A stretch of 64,000 nt of DNA from Rickettsiales bacterium (GTDB taxonomy: Bacteria > Pseudomonadota > Alphaproteobacteria > Rs-D84), in contig JAIRRC010000032.1 in NCBI GenBank assembly GCA_031256175.1, forward strand, positions 347 to 64,346, given 5' to 3'. Position 1 is the first letter of the stretch. Each line of letters starts with the position of its first letter. A model generated the notes under the pieces. The model made no database searches. It worked only from the letters and a program-made list of their open reading frames with translations, and was not told where the DNA came from. Shown one piece after another: positions 4,310 to 57,488 of the stretch. Both the position numbers and the translations under genes were made by a program.

Positions 4310-5899
4310 TTACTCTTTTCTAACCGGATAATGGCCGGATTCAAGGCGGTTCTTCACTTCGTGGTGTTTCACTTTCGTCGTCGAAGTCATCGGCAAGTCG
4401 TCTTCGGTCATCGCGAAATGGCTGCACCATTTATAGGAAGCGACTTTCGAATTCTGCTTCCTTATGCCTTTCTCCAATTCCGCAATCTGCGTGCCGGGCT
4501 CGACCTGGAACACGCCGTAGACAATCGTTTTGTCGTTTATCCTATGCTCGAAAACCGCGACGTTCTTCACGCCGGGAATCTGCATGAACAGGCCTTCCAG
4601 CTCGTCCGGATAAACATTCTTGCCGCTGTCCAGAACGATGACCAGCTTCTTTCTTCCTTGGAAGTGAAGCTCGCCATTCCTATCCAGGACAACCATGTCG
4701 CCCGTATCGAAGAAGCCCTTGTCGTCGAACGCTTCCTTATTAGCCGCGTCGTTGTCCAAATAGCCGCCGAACACCGAATGGCCTTTCAGCCACAGAACGC
4801 CCACGCCGTCCGCGTTCTTGCCGCGGATTTCGAACGTGTTGTTCGTAAGCGGCGCGCCTATCGCGAACGGAAGGCGCTTGTCGTTCGGCATGCTGATACA
4901 GATGGGGCCGACGGTTTCCGTAAGGCCGTAGCCCTGTATGAAGTTGAAGCCGAATCTTTTATAGAACAGCTCGACCTCGGGCTTGGTCGCCGCGCCGCCG
5001 CCGATAAGCAGCTTCACGCGGCCGCCGAATTTTTCCTGCACCGGGCCCTGTATCGCCTTTACCAGGAACCCAAGGCCGAACATTTTCAGCGTCTTCTGGC
5101 GGCGAAGCACGAAGCCCGCGAACCACCACAGGCGCTTGGCCTTGAAGTTGTCGATTATCTTGTTGCGGAAGACTTCGAACAGGCGCGGCACCGCGGGAAT
5201 CACGTGCGGCTTGAAATTTTCCAAGTCCGCGGCGATTTCCTTCGGATTGACGGTCGGCTGCAACAAGATGGAGCACTGAAAGTGCAGCGCCGCCAAAAGC
5301 TCGACCGCGAAGCCATACACGTGATACATCGGCAGAAAGCCGTATAGCATATCGCCGTTCGAAATGTAATCCCGCATATCGTTGATGGAGCGCGCAGTCT
5401 GCACCAGATTGAAGTGCGTAAGCGGCACGATTTTCGGCGTGCCCGTGCTGCCGCTTGTGAACGAAAGCGTCGCGATTTCGCAGTCGGCCACTTCGACCGG
5501 CTCGAATTCATACGTTTCCTTGTTCACGACTTCCGGCGTTTTGATGTCGTAGAACACGACGCCCTTGTCCGAATTGAATATGTAATTCTTTTCGCACACG
5601 ACGAATTTCGCGCCCGCGCGTTCCAGCATATTCTCATACTCGAACCGCGTCAGGTTCGTGTCCATCAAAAGCGCGCGCGCGCCAAGGCCCCACAACGCGA
5701 AAAGCGTTTGCGGGAATTCCTTTATATTGTGCGATAAAACCCCGACATTGTCGCCAGATTCCACGCCCAATTTGCGAAGAGCCACGGCGCGCGCCTTTAT
5801 ATCTTCAAGAAACCGCGCGTAGGCGATGCCTTCGCGGGCGATGAAGGTATTGTTCGGCGCTTTCGCGACCGCGTCTTCATATAGTTGCCACATGTTCAT
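4310..5899 (-). CDS. AMP-dependent acyl-CoA synthetase/ligase (long-chain-fatty-acid CoA ligase-like)
   Basis: AMP-binding motif SFTSGSTGTPK; start MNMWQLY with AAGGAAG RBS. Confidence 0.85.
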   Translation of the reverse strand: MNMWQLYEDAVAKAPNNTFIAREGIAYARFLEDIKARAVALRKLGVESGDNVGVLSHNIKEFPQTLFALWGLGARALLMDTNLTRFEYENMLERAGAKFVVCEKNYIFNSDKGVVFYDIKTPEVVNKETYEFEPVEVADCEIATLSFTSGSTGTPKIVPLTHFNLVQTARSINDMRDYISNGDMLYGFLPMYHVYGFAVELLAALHFQCSILLQPTVNPKEIAADLENFKPHVIPAVPRLFEVFRNKIIDNFKAKRLWWFAGFVLRRQKTLKMFGLGFLVKAIQGPVQEKFGGRVKLLIGGGAATKPEVELFYKRFGFNFIQGYGLTETVGPICISMPNDKRLPFAIGAPLTNNTFEIRGKNADGVGVLWLKGHSVFGGYLDNDAANKEAFDDKGFFDTGDMVVLDRNGELHFQGRKKLVIVLDSGKNVYPDELEGLFMQIPGVKNVAVFEHRINDKTIVYGVFQVEPGTQIAELEKGIRKQNSKVASYKWCSHFAMTEDDLPMTSTTKVKHHEVKNRLESGHYPVRKE

Positions 5900-6114
5900 C
5901 TCTGCTTCCTTTTTGTTAAACGACAATGCGCGCCTTCCGACGGCATCTCGCGACGCGCACATCAATTCGCGCCTAATAACGGCGCTTATTGTGCGCTTAT
6001 TCGCTCGCTGTCATCTGTCTTTGCCAGACCATGCGTTTGTCATTTCCTTTATGTTTATAGCTAGACCGGATGATTTTACAATGCTATAATCCGTTTGTCA
6101 AATGGAGCCGAAAA

Positions 6115-8505: not shown

Positions 8506-9909
8506 TTAGCCTTCCAGTTTCGGGAAGAGGACGACCGGGTTTTTCGTTTTGAAAGATTCGATTATATTCGCGGACGCCGCCGGCATAATCGGCCGGGCCA
8601 TATAAGCCAATTCCAAGACTCCCTGCCCCAATGTTTTCAAGACCGACAGCAATTCTTCGCGTTTCGCCCCGTCTTTCGCAAGCGACCAGGGCTGCGTTTT
8701 ATCTATATATAGATTAAGTTCCGAGCTTTTATTCAAGATATTTTCCGCAAGCGATTTGATGTCCGAAAGGTTTTCTATTCCTGGCGCCTTGGGCTGGACG
8801 GACAATTCCATATCCGGCGAATATTTCTCCATCATCTTGAATGTGCGAAGATAAAGATTGCCGAAGTTGTTCGCAAGCACGCCGTATTCTTTTTTCAGCA
8901 AATCTTCCGATATGACGGAATCCTTCGCAATCGCCGCGTTATGCGCGAAGTAAAACCTTAACGCGTCCGCGCCAAGCTCGCCTATAACTTTGAACGGGTC
9001 GATGGTATTGCCCAGGCTTTTCGACATTTTGACGCCGCCTTCGCCCGTCCAGAAGGCATGGACACAAGTCCGATGCGCGGGCGGCAGGCCGAAGCTTCGC
9101 AGCATTATCGGCCAATAGATGCAATGCGCCTTCAGTATGTCTTTGCCTATGACGTGGATGGAGTTTTTCCAAAGCGAGTCGAATTTGTTTATGCGAAGCG
9201 AAGTTATATAATTTATCAGGGCGTCATACCAGACATAGGCGACTTGGTCCGTATCGAACGGGAATTCTATGCCGGCGGACACGCGCTTTTTCGGGCGCGA
9301 AATCGACAAGTCGTCAAGCGGTTCTTTAAGCATGTTCAAGACTTCGGCGCGGTAGCTTTCAGGCTGAATCCATTCGGGATTTTCATTTATATACCCGACC
9401 AGCCATTCGCGGTGCGGCTCCAATGGAAGCAAATAATTTTCCTCCTCCATCTCGGTCGGCGCCTTCTGGTGGTCGGCGCATAAGCCGCGCGCGTCCAGGT
9501 CGGATTCCTTTTTGAACTGCTCGCACCCGACGCAGTAAAGTCCCTTGTATTTTTTCTTCACAAGAATTTTTTTCGCGTGCGCGTCCGCCAGCCATTCCTG
9601 GACTATCTTTTTATGCTCCGGCATAGTGGTTCGAATGAAAAAATCCGGCGTCGCGCCAAGCTCGTCCGCAAGCTGTTTGAAACGCGCGCTTTGCTTCGCC
9701 GCGAATTCTTCGAAGGGCAATCCGGCGGCGGCTGCGGCGTCCTGCATTTTCTGCCCGTGCTCGTCCGTGCCTGTCGTGAAGAAGACGTTGTCGCCTTGCA
9801 GCTTGAAGGCGCGGCGCAGGATGTCGCACATCGCGGTGGTATAGGCGCTGCCCAGATGCGGCGCGCCGTTCGGATAATAAATCGGGGTAGTTATGTATTT
9901 TTCAGCCAT
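8506..9909 (-). CDS. metG: methionine--tRNA ligase (short form)
   Basis: TTPIYYPNGAPHLGSAYTT N-terminus, KMSKS motif, Zn knuckle CVGCEQF..CADH. Confidence 0.8.
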   Translation of the reverse strand: MAEKYITTPIYYPNGAPHLGSAYTTAMCDILRRAFKLQGDNVFFTTGTDEHGQKMQDAAAAAGLPFEEFAAKQSARFKQLADELGATPDFFIRTTMPEHKKIVQEWLADAHAKKILVKKKYKGLYCVGCEQFKKESDLDARGLCADHQKAPTEMEEENYLLPLEPHREWLVGYINENPEWIQPESYRAEVLNMLKEPLDDLSISRPKKRVSAGIEFPFDTDQVAYVWYDALINYITSLRINKFDSLWKNSIHVIGKDILKAHCIYWPIMLRSFGLPPAHRTCVHAFWTGEGGVKMSKSLGNTIDPFKVIGELGADALRFYFAHNAAIAKDSVISEDLLKKEYGVLANNFGNLYLRTFKMMEKYSPDMELSVQPKAPGIENLSDIKSLAENILNKSSELNLYIDKTQPWSLAKDGAKREELLSVLKTLGQGVLELAYMARPIMPAASANIIESFKTKNPVVLFPKLEG

Positions 9910-9946: not shown

Positions 9947-10687
9947 TTATTTAGCGTTATAGGACAGGGTCTGTTTCCGAAGGAGGTTGTGGATTTTCAC
10001 TTCGAAACCCAGCTCGGGCGAATAGGACATTATCGTGTCGATTCTATCCTGAACCGCCTTGTTGAATTCCGCGACCTTTTCATACGGCTTTTTGAATATT
10101 TCCAGCCTTTCGTCCGCGCATGAAAGCGTGCCCGAGAACAAGATTCTCATGCCGAGGATTTTCTCCATATATTCCAATTCCATGCGCGCGCCTTCCATTA
10201 TCGGCGCGAAAGCCGGATAGTTCTTGCCGCATTTCGCGCGTATTTCATCGAAGCGGGCAATCGTGTCGGGGCCGCACACCCTTAAATGCCCGCCGGGCGC
10301 AAGATACAGCATCGACTTCAAATAAAATAATTTCGCGGCGGCGCGGCTGACCGCATACACCGGCAACACGTAATTCGCCCAAATTTCGTGGAACTGGCCG
10401 GGCTTGAATCCCGCGTATGTTATATAATCCGCCTGTATATTCGCAAATTGGGAGTTGTGCATGCAAAGCGGGTCGATGTGCAAATCTATGTTCGTGAATG
10501 TGAAGCTGCCGAGAATTCTGTCGGTGGCGAAACCTTCGCCATAACACCCGTATCCGCCGCCGACAAGAAGGGTGTTGCCGCCGTTCGCCGGATACCAGCA
10601 CAAGACAAGGTCTTCGGCATAATCTTCGGCGGCCCGCTGGCGATGCTGATTGTCCAGATAGTTTATGATTTGCTTTTTCGCGGGCAT
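9947..10687 (-). CDS. hypothetical protein, possible class I SAM-dependent methyltransferase fold
   Basis: 246 aa; Gly-rich LLVGGGYGCYGEGF motif; weak assignment. Confidence 0.35.
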   Translation of the reverse strand: MPAKKQIINYLDNQHRQRAAEDYAEDLVLCWYPANGGNTLLVGGGYGCYGEGFATDRILGSFTFTNIDLHIDPLCMHNSQFANIQADYITYAGFKPGQFHEIWANYVLPVYAVSRAAAKLFYLKSMLYLAPGGHLRVCGPDTIARFDEIRAKCGKNYPAFAPIMEGARMELEYMEKILGMRILFSGTLSCADERLEIFKKPYEKVAEFNKAVQDRIDTIMSYSPELGFEVKIHNLLRKQTLSYNAK

Positions 10688-10792: not shown

Positions 10793-10868
10793 GGGGCCGT
10801 AGCTCAGTTGGTAGAGCGCTTCGTTCGCAATGAAGAGGTCGGGAGTTCGAATCTCCTCGGTTCCACCA
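10793..10868 (+). tRNA. tRNA-Ala (anticodon CGC)
   Basis: 76-nt cloverleaf, G3:U70 Ala identity pair, anticodon loop TTCGCAA, encoded CCA. Confidence 0.9.
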
Positions 10869-10993
10869 TTAACTTGGTACCGCGCCATCCTTCGTTCCCT
10901 CGCGACGCGCACATCAACTCACGGCTAACAACGCCGCTCGTTGTGTGCTTATTCGCTCGTGCTCGAATCCGATTGGCTCCACCATTAACTTGG
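10869..10993 (+). repeat. tRNA-3'-associated structured element (family A, copy 2) ending in a direct repeat of the tRNA-Ala 3' end
   Basis: ~100-bp segment ~85% identical to 30574-30669 and to 5925-6020; 16-bp exact DR TCCACCATTAACTTGG at 10862-10877 and 10978-10993. Confidence 0.65.
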
Positions 10994-30459: not shown

Positions 30460-30487
30460 TTGATTTCAAGCCCATGGCGGCTATAAT
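30460..30487 (+). promoter_or_regulatory. putative sigma70 promoter of tRNA-Gln
   Basis: TTGATT-16 nt-TATAAT ending 12 nt before tRNA 5' end. Confidence 0.5.
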
Positions 30488-30499
30488 GACGCGTCTTAT

Positions 30500-30573
30500 T
30501 GGGGCGTCGTCTAACGGTAGGACAAGAGATTTTGGTTCTCTTTATCGCGGTTCGAATCCGTGCGCCCCAACCA
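30500..30573 (+). tRNA. tRNA-Gln (anticodon UUG)
   Basis: 74-nt cloverleaf, U1:A72, anticodon stem AGAGA/TCTCT, loop TTTTGGT, encoded CCA. Confidence 0.85.
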
Positions 30574-30688
30574 GAATGCAGGCGCGCGCCATCCTTCGTT
30601 CCCTCGCGACGCGCACATCAATTCGCCGCTAATAACGCGGCTCATTGTGTGCTTGTTTGCTCGTGCTCGAATCCGTGCGCCCCAACCA
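30574..30688 (+). repeat. tRNA-3'-associated structured element (family A, copy 3) ending in 19-bp direct repeat of tRNA-Gln 3' end
   Basis: 96-bp segment homologous to 10878-10977 and 5925-6020; DR AATCCGTGCGCCCCAACCA at 30555-30573 and 30670-30688. Confidence 0.7.
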
Positions 30689-30855
30689 GATTTTTATCAC
30701 GCCCCGAAGAGGCGGGATAAAAATATGTATTGGGTTGCCGGATGAAGAACCGCGAGGAAGCGGTTCGACAACCAGCGTTGCATTTTTAATGCAACGCGCA
30801 GGTGCGGCGAAGCAAGGACGCCAGTCCTTGCGAGTCAATCCGTGCGCCCCAACCA
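30689..30855 (+). repeat. second tandem tRNA-3'-associated element (family B) ending in third copy of the tRNA-Gln 3' direct repeat
   Basis: 148-bp segment with perfect hairpin GCGTTGCAT-TTTTA-ATGCAACGC; third DR at 30837-30855; weak similarity to the tRNA-Met associated segment. Confidence 0.65.
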
Positions 30856-30869
30856 AATAGAGGTGAGAA

Positions 30870-31736
30870 ATGTCGATATTCATAGACATCGGGTCCAGCA
30901 CTATCAAGACTTATGAATTATCCGCCGGTGGCGCTTTGGATTTGGTCGACGAGTTTTCAACTTTATTCAAAGACGGGTTCGCGCCGGACGCGGGCGTCGC
31001 GGAAGACAAGATAAATGCGCTGCTTACGCATCTCTCGAAATGGCGCGGGCAAGACGTCAAGACTTTCGCCACGGGAATTTGGCGAGAAATTCCGGCCGCG
31101 CAACTCGCATTCTTAAAATCAAATTCGCCCGTCGGTTTCGACGTCATTTCGCACGACGACGAGGCGCGCTACTTGAAACAAGCCGCAGCCCTGCCTTTCA
31201 ACGGCAAGAAGGCCTTGGTTATAAACATGGGCGGCAAAACGACCGAGCTTGTGTCCGTCGAACAGGGCGGCGCCGTTAAAACGCAGCTGCTTAAAATCGG
31301 CGTCGCGGATTTGCTGAACAAGTTCCCCGAAGTGAACGAAGAAAAATCCGGCGCGTCCATAAGCGACATGGAAAAATTCGTCGCCGAGAAACTCGCGTCG
31401 GAAGAATTCGACACGGACTACGACTTCGCGCTTTTCACGGGCGAGCTGCGGTTCGAAAAACTTTCCGGTTATCCCCTTGAACCGAACACTCAATTTTCGG
31501 AATCCAACCATCCGTTCCAAGTTTCCATCGAAGGTTTCGTCGCTGGCACGATGCGCATATTTTTCGACATGACTATGGCCGAACTTCGCGCGCTTATGCC
31601 CAAAAATCCGAACTGGATGACGGGCGCGCGGCCGGGCGCGGTCCTGCCGCTTGCCATCTTCAACCGGGCCGGTATAAAGGTCGTGGTGCCAAGCGATTTG
31701 AACCTTATAAACGGCGCCGTCCGCGACTTCATATAA
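30870..31736 (+). CDS. Ppx/GppA-family phosphatase-like (ASKHA fold) protein
   Basis: IDIGSSTIK..VISHDDEARYLKQAA..LVINMGGKTTELV match Ppx/GppA N-domain motifs. Confidence 0.6.
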   Translation: MSIFIDIGSSTIKTYELSAGGALDLVDEFSTLFKDGFAPDAGVAEDKINALLTHLSKWRGQDVKTFATGIWREIPAAQLAFLKSNSPVGFDVISHDDEARYLKQAAALPFNGKKALVINMGGKTTELVSVEQGGAVKTQLLKIGVADLLNKFPEVNEEKSGASISDMEKFVAEKLASEEFDTDYDFALFTGELRFEKLSGYPLEPNTQFSESNHPFQVSIEGFVAGTMRIFFDMTMAELRALMPKNPNWMTGARPGAVLPLAIFNRAGIKVVVPSDLNLINGAVRDFI

Positions 31737-51095: not shown

Positions 51096-51300
51096 TGGTG
51101 GGTTAGCACGGACTCGCTCGCCCTTGCGGGCTGCGCGGCATTCGTATTCGCCGCTTGCGCGGCTTCGTTCGAACTTCGCCTTACGGCTCGTTCTCACTAA
51201 CTCATTGTCGAACCGCCCGCCGCTTCGCGGCTCTTTGCGGATTCTCGTCCGCGCATAATTATCCAAAAATTTGCGACAGCCTTCGGCCGTCTTAAATTTT
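51096..51300 (-). repeat. tRNA-3'-associated element downstream of tRNA-Met ending in a 21-bp direct repeat of the tRNA 3' end
   Basis: 184-bp ORF-less segment; DR TGGTGGGTTAGCACGGACTCG at 51301-51321 and 51096-51116. Confidence 0.65.
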
Positions 51301-51377
51301 TGGTGGGTTAGCACGGACTCGAACCGCGGACCAAAGCGTTATGAGCGCTCCGCTCTAACCAACTGAGCTACTAACCC
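51301..51377 (-). tRNA. tRNA-Met (anticodon CAU; elongator or tRNA-Ile2)
   Basis: 77-nt cloverleaf, G1:C72 (not initiator), anticodon loop CTCATAA, encoded CCA. Confidence 0.85.
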
Positions 51378-57411: not shown

Positions 57412-57488
57412 TGGTGGTTGTGATAAGACTCGAACTTACGACCCCTTCGATGTGAACGAAGTGCTCTAACCAACTGAGCTACACAACC
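57412..57488 (-). tRNA. tRNA-Val (anticodon CAC)
   Basis: 77-nt cloverleaf, anticodon stem CTTCG/CGAAG, loop TTCACAT, encoded CCA. Confidence 0.85.

Follow-up and report, generated by a model that had tools for sequence, protein, structure and literature searches.

Transfer RNA genes are the classic landing pad of large mobile islands, and in the DNA analysed here they appear to be used by units of about 100 nt. This DNA is a 64-kb stretch (64,000 nt, below referred to as the window) of contig JAIRRC010000032.1 from a bacterium annotated as Rickettsiales, and the units are two families of non-coding module, A and B, that stand behind tRNA genes and finish with a copy of the preceding tRNA's own 3′ end. 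Their closest described counterparts are elements integrated into tRNA genes, including cis-mobilisable elements (CIMEs), which are integrase-less derivatives of integrative elements. When a tyrosine integrase mediates the insertion, the incoming element brings a 3′ part of the tRNA that regenerates the gene and displaces the original one, with one element family per tRNA (the Islander principle, PMC4383910). Islands of this kind resemble the modules in the order of tRNA gene, insert and displaced 3′ copy starting in the T arm, in direct orientation, and in their tandem occurrence at a single tRNA (PMC4383910). They are, however, kilobases long and either carry an integrase or derive from elements that do, whereas the modules span 90–170 nt and no integrase was found; moreover, one core lies behind four tRNAs, with host-derived tails and a variable left junction.

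The casposase offers a second precedent, since it requires the TψC-loop region of tRNA-Pro and produces a 15-bp target-site duplication (TSD) that overlaps the tRNA 3′ end by 5 bp (PMC5137440). TψC-loop targeting, staggered nicks, a long duplication at the tRNA 3′ end and a tRNA that remains intact all recall the situation described here (PMC5137440). Casposons are nevertheless large, carry cas1, polB and terminal inverted repeats, and make a TSD that is fixed at 15 bp and placed mostly downstream of the tRNA, whereas the duplication in the window and its relative is 19–31 bp long and begins inside the T-loop. No terminal inverted repeats were seen by eye in the type A alignments (left end GCGCGCC..., right end ...GCTCGTGC), in which no dedicated repeat search was made. 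In eukaryotes, short and long interspersed nuclear elements (SINEs and LINEs) rely on target-primed reverse transcription, in which the 3′ tail of a small, non-autonomous transcribed unit anneals to the nicked target; to our knowledge, no such system is known in bacteria.

As regards RNA processing, the t-elements and acceptor-like stem-loops of plant mitochondria are partial tRNA mimics, with acceptor/T-arm-like helices, located between the genes of polycistronic transcripts, which are proposed or have been shown to direct the RNase P/Z cleavage that makes mRNA ends (PMC1920247). Type B recalls them through a predicted acceptor/T-stem-like helix with a CCA, located 14 nt upstream of a start codon, but t-elements are degenerate whole tRNAs that lack an exact copy of a neighbouring tail, and the similarity of type B to RNase P/Z-directing elements is one of resemblance only. 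No equivalent bacterial phenomenon was found in the literature.

Modules A and B adjoin tRNA 3′ ends in one clade of termite-gut “Rickettsiales” metagenome-assembled genomes (MAGs). Judging by their sequences, we lean, with modest confidence, towards the view that they are miniature non-autonomous insertion modules, non-coding and structured, which target the T-loop of tRNA genes and duplicate the tail of their host. The evidence suggests either a miniature insertion element of a kind not yet described or a tRNA-tagged small RNA. The modules are best regarded as tRNA-targeted insertions that depart from the known kinds in being tiny, in duplicating host sequence, in being joined precisely at the T-loop and in carrying a structured RNA as cargo.

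Repeats behind tRNA-Gln

The gene for tRNA-Gln(UUG) was recognized by both ARAGORN and Rfam (58.4 bits). Its final 19 nt, AATCCGTGCGCCCCAACCA, occur exactly at 30555–30573, 30670–30688 and 30837–30855 (expected count 0.04; three matches were reached in 0/100 shuffles), and no further site with up to 3 mismatches is present in the window. Three exact copies of the tRNA-Gln 3′ end had been reported in a preliminary description of this DNA, and their extent can now be refined: copies 1 and 2 have 24 nt in common, TCGAATCCGTGCGCCCCAACCAGA (30552–30575 and 30667–30690), and the stretch common to copy 3 is 19 nt. The intervening segments have the lengths given there, i.e. 96 nt (30574–30669) and 148 nt (30689–30836), and the second one indeed contains a perfect hairpin, GCGTTGCAT-TTTTA-ATGCAACGC, at 30775–30797. 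The same account had placed this pattern at two other tRNA genes of the window, which is correct for tRNA-Met, with an exact copy of 21 nt, and for tRNA-Ala, where the copy is imperfect (16 nt exact). It had also described the inserts as too small to encode an integrase; they are discrete, devoid of open reading frames (ORFs) and much too small for autonomy, and they recur at other tRNA genes.

The junction between tRNA and type A was reproduced in an independent assembly contig (L015), and the whole tRNA-Lys/A/tail unit of a relative was reproduced in two further independent contigs (L012 and L013). Since the junctions recur in independent Logan and JGI assemblies, the tandem architecture is not an assembly artefact. 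The signature of a B-less or empty allele would be a junction leading from the tRNA CCA, or from copy 2, straight to AATAGAGG. One contig of an independent k-mer assembly of the same sample (L004) begins at window position 30837, the first base of the third 19-mer; this is the break that a B-less allele in the population would produce, which gives a weak hint. The break is not specific, because other contigs break inside elements for other reasons: L015 ends at window position 30614, at a 37-nt block common to two A copies, and L016 starts at about 51141, inside the B copy of tRNA-Met.

Type A modules

The first segment behind tRNA-Gln and the segment behind tRNA-Ala are homologous (91% identity over 91 nt) and define type A, which has a core of about 83 nt and is known in five copies from two genomes. 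An exact 24-mer of this core, searched in 185,579 species-representative genomes, matched a single locus, in the MAG LBH81, where type A follows tRNA-Lys(CTT) and, 3.8 kb off, tRNA-Glu(CTC). The ppx-like protein of LBH81 is 78% identical to that of the window, and the syntenic DNA is about 74% identical. A covariance model scored all five A copies at 102–110 bits (105–110 bits for the tRNA-linked ones) and detected no others in about 230 kb examined (window and relatives). The search for the segments in the window and its relatives, by covariance model and exact 24-mer, thus placed type A at further tRNAs, so that tRNA-linked copies other than those at tRNA-Gln do exist.

The cores of the tRNA-linked copies are 93–100% identical. 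Exact blocks of 37–38 nt and 30 nt are common to both genomes against a background of about 74% DNA identity; blocks of such length are otherwise seen between the window and LBH81 only in tRNAs and in the most conserved coding stretches. The A core is among the most conserved non-coding sequences common to the two genomes, and it has no Rfam family. The right boundary is identical to the base in all five copies and the left boundary nearly so, and the copies resemble each other more within one genome than across genomes.

The core contains a covarying hairpin, which in the Gln copy reads GCACAUCAAUUCGCCGC-UAAUAAC-GCGGCUCAUUGUGUGC, with a conserved UAAYAAC loop. Its apical stem takes the forms CCGC/GCGG, CGGC/GCCG and GCGCC/GGCGC, with AAAAUUUUC/GAAAAUUUU in both LBH81 copies; it is alike within a genome and different across genomes, but it always pairs, every change being compensated. 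Pairing over the hairpin reaches 96.2%, with 13 double-change cells, and 0/500 shuffles were as good, while slid controls gave 25–57%. The fifth copy has no adjoining tRNA and lies between divergent genes for an AMP-binding enzyme and an exonuclease III-like protein; the 5′ third of this copy is unlike that of the tRNA-linked ones, and it has its own compensated apical stem (GCGCC/GGCGC). A tRNA-like cloverleaf was considered for type A and rejected, as the module has no 5′ acceptor strand and pairing between its left spacer and the tail is not significant (p = 0.06–0.78); no acceptor/T-stem-like helix was found in this type.

Such conservation of the core against a 74% background, together with a covarying hairpin, would also be expected of resident functional RNA modules, i.e. 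ancient and immobile processing, termination or small-RNA parts, whose tails and cores have been homogenized by gene conversion. The tRNA-like closing helix of type B (see below), the restriction of promoters to the tRNAs, and the greater similarity of copies within than between genomes fit this explanation as well. Against it, the exact identity runs into non-functional trailer bases (GA, AAATT and TTAACTTGG), which argues for recent duplication and not for selection, and the origin of a module at each tRNA would still require a duplicative insertion. Furthermore, one copy has no tRNA, and in relatives at 67–68% protein identity the tRNA-Val, tRNA-Arg(CCT) and tRNA-Lys(TTT) genes are accompanied neither by tail repeats nor by A copies. 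We regard residence as unlikely, although it deserves serious consideration. If it were true, the loci would represent an unreported way of attaching an authentic tRNA 3′ end, as a tag, to 5′ leaders or small RNAs, recalling mitochondrial tRNA punctuation and t-element processing, in a lineage annotated as Rickettsiales.

Junctions between modules and host tRNAs

All four tRNA-linked A cores end in CGCTCGTGC, and the next base is T55 of the local T-loop. The distal tail is exact in three of them: TCGAATCCGTGCGCCCCAACCA + GA for Gln (24 nt), TCGAATCCCCCAGCACCCACCA for Lys (22 nt) and TCGATTCCCGGTGGGGTCGCCA + AAATT for Glu (27 nt). The last of these carries the Glu-specific T-loop TCGATTCC, so the T-loop is part of what was copied and is not core sequence. 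The motif CGCTCGTGC precedes each complete tRNA tail found outside a tRNA gene. The 3′ limit of the repeat varies across the A copies (CCA +0, +2, +5 or +9), and the spacer between the proximal CCA and the core, 3–16 nt long, is unrelated in both sequence and length between copies. Overall, the direct repeat runs from within the T-loop (T55 for A, positions 56–58 for B) through the CCA and 0–9 trailer bases and measures 22–31 bp for A and 19–21 bp for B; the tRNA is left intact.

As one core is joined to four host-specific tails, the repeat is best understood as a target duplication (22–31 bp) and not as a carried att site; the shared core, local tails and unconserved proximal spacers imply that the tail was copied from the target. 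For the same reason, we do not retain the earlier proposal that the repeats are attL and attR sites created by site-specific integration. A related explanation invokes CIME-like elements that are bounded by attL and attR, are moved by a tyrosine integrase acting in trans with a crossover in the T-loop, and bring the tRNA 3′ end with them. In its favour, the loci look exactly like a tRNA gene whose 3′ fragment has been displaced, the T-loop position at which the repeat begins is constant, the tandem modules at tRNA-Gln have the look of accretion, and the T-stem region is the commonest attP class (1836/3919 tRNA-integrated islands, PMC4383910). However, a single A core would need at least four attP sequences (Ala, Gln, Lys and Glu), the DNA after the proximal CCA, which should be element DNA, is unconserved, and the left boundary is variable. 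In addition, the hybrid tail of the Ala copy (described below) is the distal one and does not fit the local T stem, and no integrase gene was found, either in 41 kb of LBH81 or in the 64-kb window, the inserts themselves (96–205 nt) being without a credible ORF. A CIME-like origin is thus, in our estimation, distinctly unlikely.

The preliminary description had listed three candidate explanations. Two of them are viable and mutually compatible: non-autonomous elements of miniature size, and small structured RNAs that are transcribed together with the tRNA. The third is serial integration followed by deletion, under which the segments would be the little that is left of larger islands or prophages; it could appeal to the facts that tRNA genes are the usual targets of islands and that tandem displaced fragments are known. 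But a core of about 83 nt whose right end is precise to the base, present five times in two genomes, is not what independent deletions would leave behind, nor would they account for a covarying hairpin and conservation far above background. No match was found in viral contigs, nor in a BLAST search of A and B against phages and plasmids. With shared boundaries and conservation both opposing it, decay is essentially refuted and highly improbable.

The Ala copy deviates from the others. Its distal tail (10963–10993) consists of TCGAATCCGATTGGC followed by TCCACCATTAACTTGG, 16 of its 31 nt being exact. Its first 15 nt make a valid Ala-type T-stem/acceptor strand that retains U70, so that G3:U70 pairing would result, yet they are unable to pair with GGGAG/CUCCU, the T stem of the local tRNA-Ala(CGC). 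Over its remaining 16 nt, the tail equals the local gene and trailer, reaching 9 nt past the CCA. This copy may have retained part of an older Ala-type tail, in which case the joining would have taken place farther in the 3′ direction, at the TCCACCA that the old tail has in common with the new target; a junction shifted in this way would support duplication with T-loop-guided joining. In LBH81, a classical terminator follows the Glu distal tail and a terminator-like hairpin follows the Lys one, so that at both genes it looks as if the module had slipped in between gene and terminator.

Type B modules

Type B (110–170 nt) is known in two copies, behind tRNA-Gln and tRNA-Met; in the latter case the exact 21-nt copy of the tRNA 3′ end lies 184 nt downstream of the gene. 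The two bodies are homologous (local alignment, p = 0.004 against shuffles) and have the blocks AAGARCCGCGA, GCGGTTCGACAA, GCGGCGAA and GCGAG in common, and both are predicted to fold stably (z = -6.8 for Gln, z = -4.2 for Met). In each copy, a terminator-like hairpin precedes a 5′ arm that pairs with the tail from about position 59 to the discriminator. In the predicted fold, the resulting closing helix of 13–14 bp corresponds to a stacked acceptor and T stem with an unpaired CCA in both copies; inside it lies a body of several helices, whose junction bases are conserved. The body at tRNA-Gln contains GAACCGC/GCGGUUC, a GACAA junction, the perfect hairpin at 30775–30797 and a hairpin GCAAGGAC/GUCCUUGC. 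The arms pair better than shuffled arms (p about 0.02 each); their pairing is about as good with the Met tail as with the Gln tail, which have UCCGUGC...CCCA in common, and it is poorer with the Ala, Val, Lys and Glu tails. The arm therefore seems to belong to the element, and B occurs solely at tails on which it can close.

At gathering thresholds, Rfam recognized only four tRNAs in the whole window and no family for A or B. Searches of the elements at E ≤ 10 returned a sub-threshold match of B-Gln to Betaproteobacteria-1 RNA (RF02932), plus noise (CRISPR-DR32, mir-232, twister-P5, ACAT and U4atac). B-Gln (30728–30835) aligns over the full RF02932 model and has GGUG(C)GGCGAAG, the next hairpin and CGRGU in common with it, but it scores 20.9 bits against a gathering threshold of 49.4, the 5′ hairpin of the model does not fit, and B-Met has no match. 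A hammerhead-like core was rejected on reading the B sequences, in the absence of a dedicated test (U4 is replaced, there is an extra C, and Rfam gives no hit).

Hairpins directly follow the CCA of a tRNA or tail at 30690–30724, at 51266–51300 (minus strand) and at 9685–9721 (minus strand) of contig L012. They share an AU-rich base, a GC-rich top and a CGAAG loop, and could be either tRNA terminators or the left ends of type B. The first of them fails the terminator criteria of the scan, as no T-run follows its GC stem.

Several other known structures were compared with the modules and rejected. A CRISPR-like array is contradicted by the number of repeats (at most three), by “spacers” that are conserved families present at other tRNAs and by the lack of cas genes among those found, the CRISPR-DR32 score of 18 bits being noise. 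No R″/R′ boxes of an integron attC site were seen on reading the sequence, and insertion by an IS91/Helitron rolling-circle mechanism makes no duplication; both of these were judged by reading and had no dedicated test. A tmRNA or two-piece tmRNA gave no ARAGORN or Rfam hit.

Transcription and possible routes of insertion

Near the loci, sigma-70-like promoters were detected only upstream of the tRNAs, and a co-oriented gene starts within 14–50 nt after each tRNA–module unit. This arrangement suggests that the modules are transcribed with the tRNA, and, as far as it can be read from the DNA, they are very probably co-transcribed with it, in the Gln and Ala cases also with the downstream mRNA.

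If A and B are insertion modules, the direct repeat would be a TSD made at the arrival of the module. The T-loop sequence TCGAWTCC, common to the target tRNAs, would guide the right-hand joining and leave the left junction loose, and the insertion enzyme would act in trans. Three routes fit the junctions, and we make no choice among them. The first (a) is a nuclease or integrase with widely staggered cuts, for which the casposase acting at a tRNA TψC loop would be the nearest precedent. The second (b) is target-primed copying of a tRNA–module co-transcript whose tail anneals to the nicked T-loop, as in SINEs, and the third (c) is template switching during replication at the T-loop microhomology. 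Route b appears to account best for the Ala junction and the loose 5′ side. After insertion, the tRNA promoter would drive the module, and B would fold into its acceptor/T-stem-like helix with a free CCA; modelled in this way, it is a plausible substrate of tRNA-processing enzymes that could part the tRNA from the downstream mRNA.

In its strongest form, route b would make A and B the first bacterial SINE-like retroposons, transcribed as the tails of tRNA precursors with an authentic tRNA 3′ end and spreading to new tRNA genes through target-primed synthesis, with the DNA of a nicked T-loop annealing to the T-loop portion of the RNA tail. Four features would thereby be explained: the right junction is precise and the left one variable, the tail derives from the host, and the junction of the Ala copy is shifted. 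SINE insertions resemble the modules in the variable length of the duplication (CCA +0/+2/+5/+9), the fixed right junction and the unconserved left spacer of 3–16 nt, but the modules are not tRNA-derived at the 5′ end and no reverse transcriptase was found in the DNA examined. Alternatively, a Cas1/casposase-like integrase might move the 90–170-nt cargo into T-loops with a repeat-length duplication, which, if true, would offer a living parallel to a proto-CRISPR unit of repeat and spacer. Taken jointly, these two specific proposals are speculative, and we consider them rather unlikely.

It is also conceivable that no dedicated machinery is involved and that sporadic replication errors, with a T-loop-microhomology template switch to an A or B copy and back, created the loci, selection keeping the useful ones. 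With an 8-nt microhomology, such errors would account for a junction placed precisely in the T-loop, and likewise for the variability on the left, the duplicated positions 55–76 + n and the Ala shift, and would require no enzyme gene. Yet at least six independent events with just two donor sequences in two small genomes are many for accident, and no duplications with other inserts were seen behind any tRNA. We therefore view this explanation as improbable.

A number of observations weigh against the interpretation of A and B as insertion modules. Only five A and two B copies are available, from two genomes, and no candidate insertion enzyme was identified in about 64 kb and about 55 kb of these. 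Neither an empty site nor an excised form was seen, nor did any orthologous tRNA turn out to carry a module in just one of the two genomes; since no such pair was seen, mobility is deduced from distribution only. The similarity of copies within a genome could stem from gene conversion and not from recent transposition. The tRNA-less A copy demonstrates that the core can exist without a tail, and neither the 5′ arm of B nor the hairpin between tRNA and B is explained by simple duplication. Strand signals in the A hairpin conflict: the outer helix, with its three G.U pairs, speaks for the plus strand, but in the inner helix three A.C mismatches would read as G.U pairs on the minus strand. Finally, we know of no established bacterial enzyme that makes a target duplication of 22–31 bp. 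Should the modules nevertheless prove mobile, their insertion chemistry (long staggered cuts or T-loop-primed copying) would be of a kind not described for small bacterial elements, and a comparison of genomes with and without modules could reveal the trans-acting enzyme.

Genomic context and additional observations

Features of the loci are summarized in Table 1. The ppx-like gene downstream of tRNA-Gln probably forms one transcription unit with the tRNA-Gln modules.

Table 1. Positions of tRNA genes, module parts and neighbouring features in the window.
Feature	Position	Strand	Remarks
Type A core without tRNA and without tail	5929..6012	+	between divergent genes; 102.5 bits
tRNA-Ala(CGC), intact	10793..10868	+	ARAGORN, Rfam
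Type A at tRNA-Ala	10869..10962	+	trailer/spacer 10869–10880, core 10881–10962; 107.8 bits
Distal tail at tRNA-Ala	10963..10993	+	positions 55–69 resemble another Ala-type tRNA (CCGAUUGGC), then positions 70–76 + 9 trailer bases as in the local gene (TCCACCATTAACTTGG)
Sigma-70-like promoter (TTGATT-16-TATAAT)	30460..30487	+	upstream of tRNA-Gln; no other promoter-like site from the upstream divergent gene to the ppx-like gene
tRNA-Gln(UUG), intact	30500..30573	+	positions 55–76 (30552–30573) = repeat copy 1
Type A left spacer, unconserved	30574..30583	+	first two bases (GA) recur after copy 2
Type A core at tRNA-Gln	30584..30666	+	ends in GCTCGTGC; 110 bits
Repeat copy 2	30667..30690	+	tRNA-Gln positions 55–76 + GA; joins the A core exactly at T55
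Hairpin, AU-rich base/GC-rich top	30690..30724	+	AUUUUUAUCACGCC-CCGAAGA-GGCGGGAUAAAAAU; terminator-like placement
Type B 5′ arm	30731..30744	+	UUGGGUUGCCGGAU; pairs with repeat copy 3
Type B body	30745..30836	+	multi-helix junction; predicted fold, z = -6.8
Repeat copy 3	30837..30855	+	tRNA-Gln positions 58–76; 3′ strand of the predicted acceptor/T-stem-like closing helix of B, CCA free
Ppx/GppA-like gene, co-oriented	30870..31736	+	starts 14 nt past copy 3; ribosome-binding site GAGGTGAG
Type B at tRNA-Met	51096..51300	-	terminator-like hairpin 51275–51291, 5′ arm, larger body, exact 21-nt tail 51096–51116
tRNA-Met(CAT), intact	51301..51377	-	ARAGORN, Rfam

The window is ordinary chromosome, encoding aminoacyl-tRNA synthetases, DnaK, MurJ, SmpB, fatty-acid synthesis proteins and glycosyltransferases. 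No integrase, transposase, reverse transcriptase, Cas1 or HUH enzyme was found among its genes with Pfam matches; a dozen ORFs have no such match. No tail copy accompanies tRNA-Val (57412–57488). A 20-mer gave two chance matches in a metagenome collection, both in coding genes (metK-like).

Homologues of the ppx-like gene in six relatives (contigs L005–L011 and L017–L020) have no adjoining tRNA-Gln. The gene order around it differs in each relative examined (L005, L007, L010, L017, L018 and L020), even at 78% protein identity, which indicates that local synteny is poor in this clade. In LBH81, virB8/9/10-type secretion genes are located near the ppx-like gene (L005, 3166–7781).

Two ARAGORN predictions in contigs L018/L019, tRNA-Ala(ggc) at 5432–5515 and tRNA-Arg(tcg) at 10130–10207, were not counted, as they lie inside coding sequence, lack a CCA and are thus false positives. 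In contig L017 (16036–16060, plus strand), the last 7 nt of tRNA-Lys(TTT) recur 6 nt on (CCCACCA-CCAGTT-CCCACCA), probably by chance. The same contig, from a relative at 68% identity, contains two tandem-like units of about 95 nt behind tRNA-Arg(CCT), at about 430–690 on the minus strand (...GTATGTTCAATACACTCCCTTCG... and ...GTATGTCTATATACACTCCCTCG...). These carry no copy of the tRNA tail and may represent a different tRNA-linked repeat.

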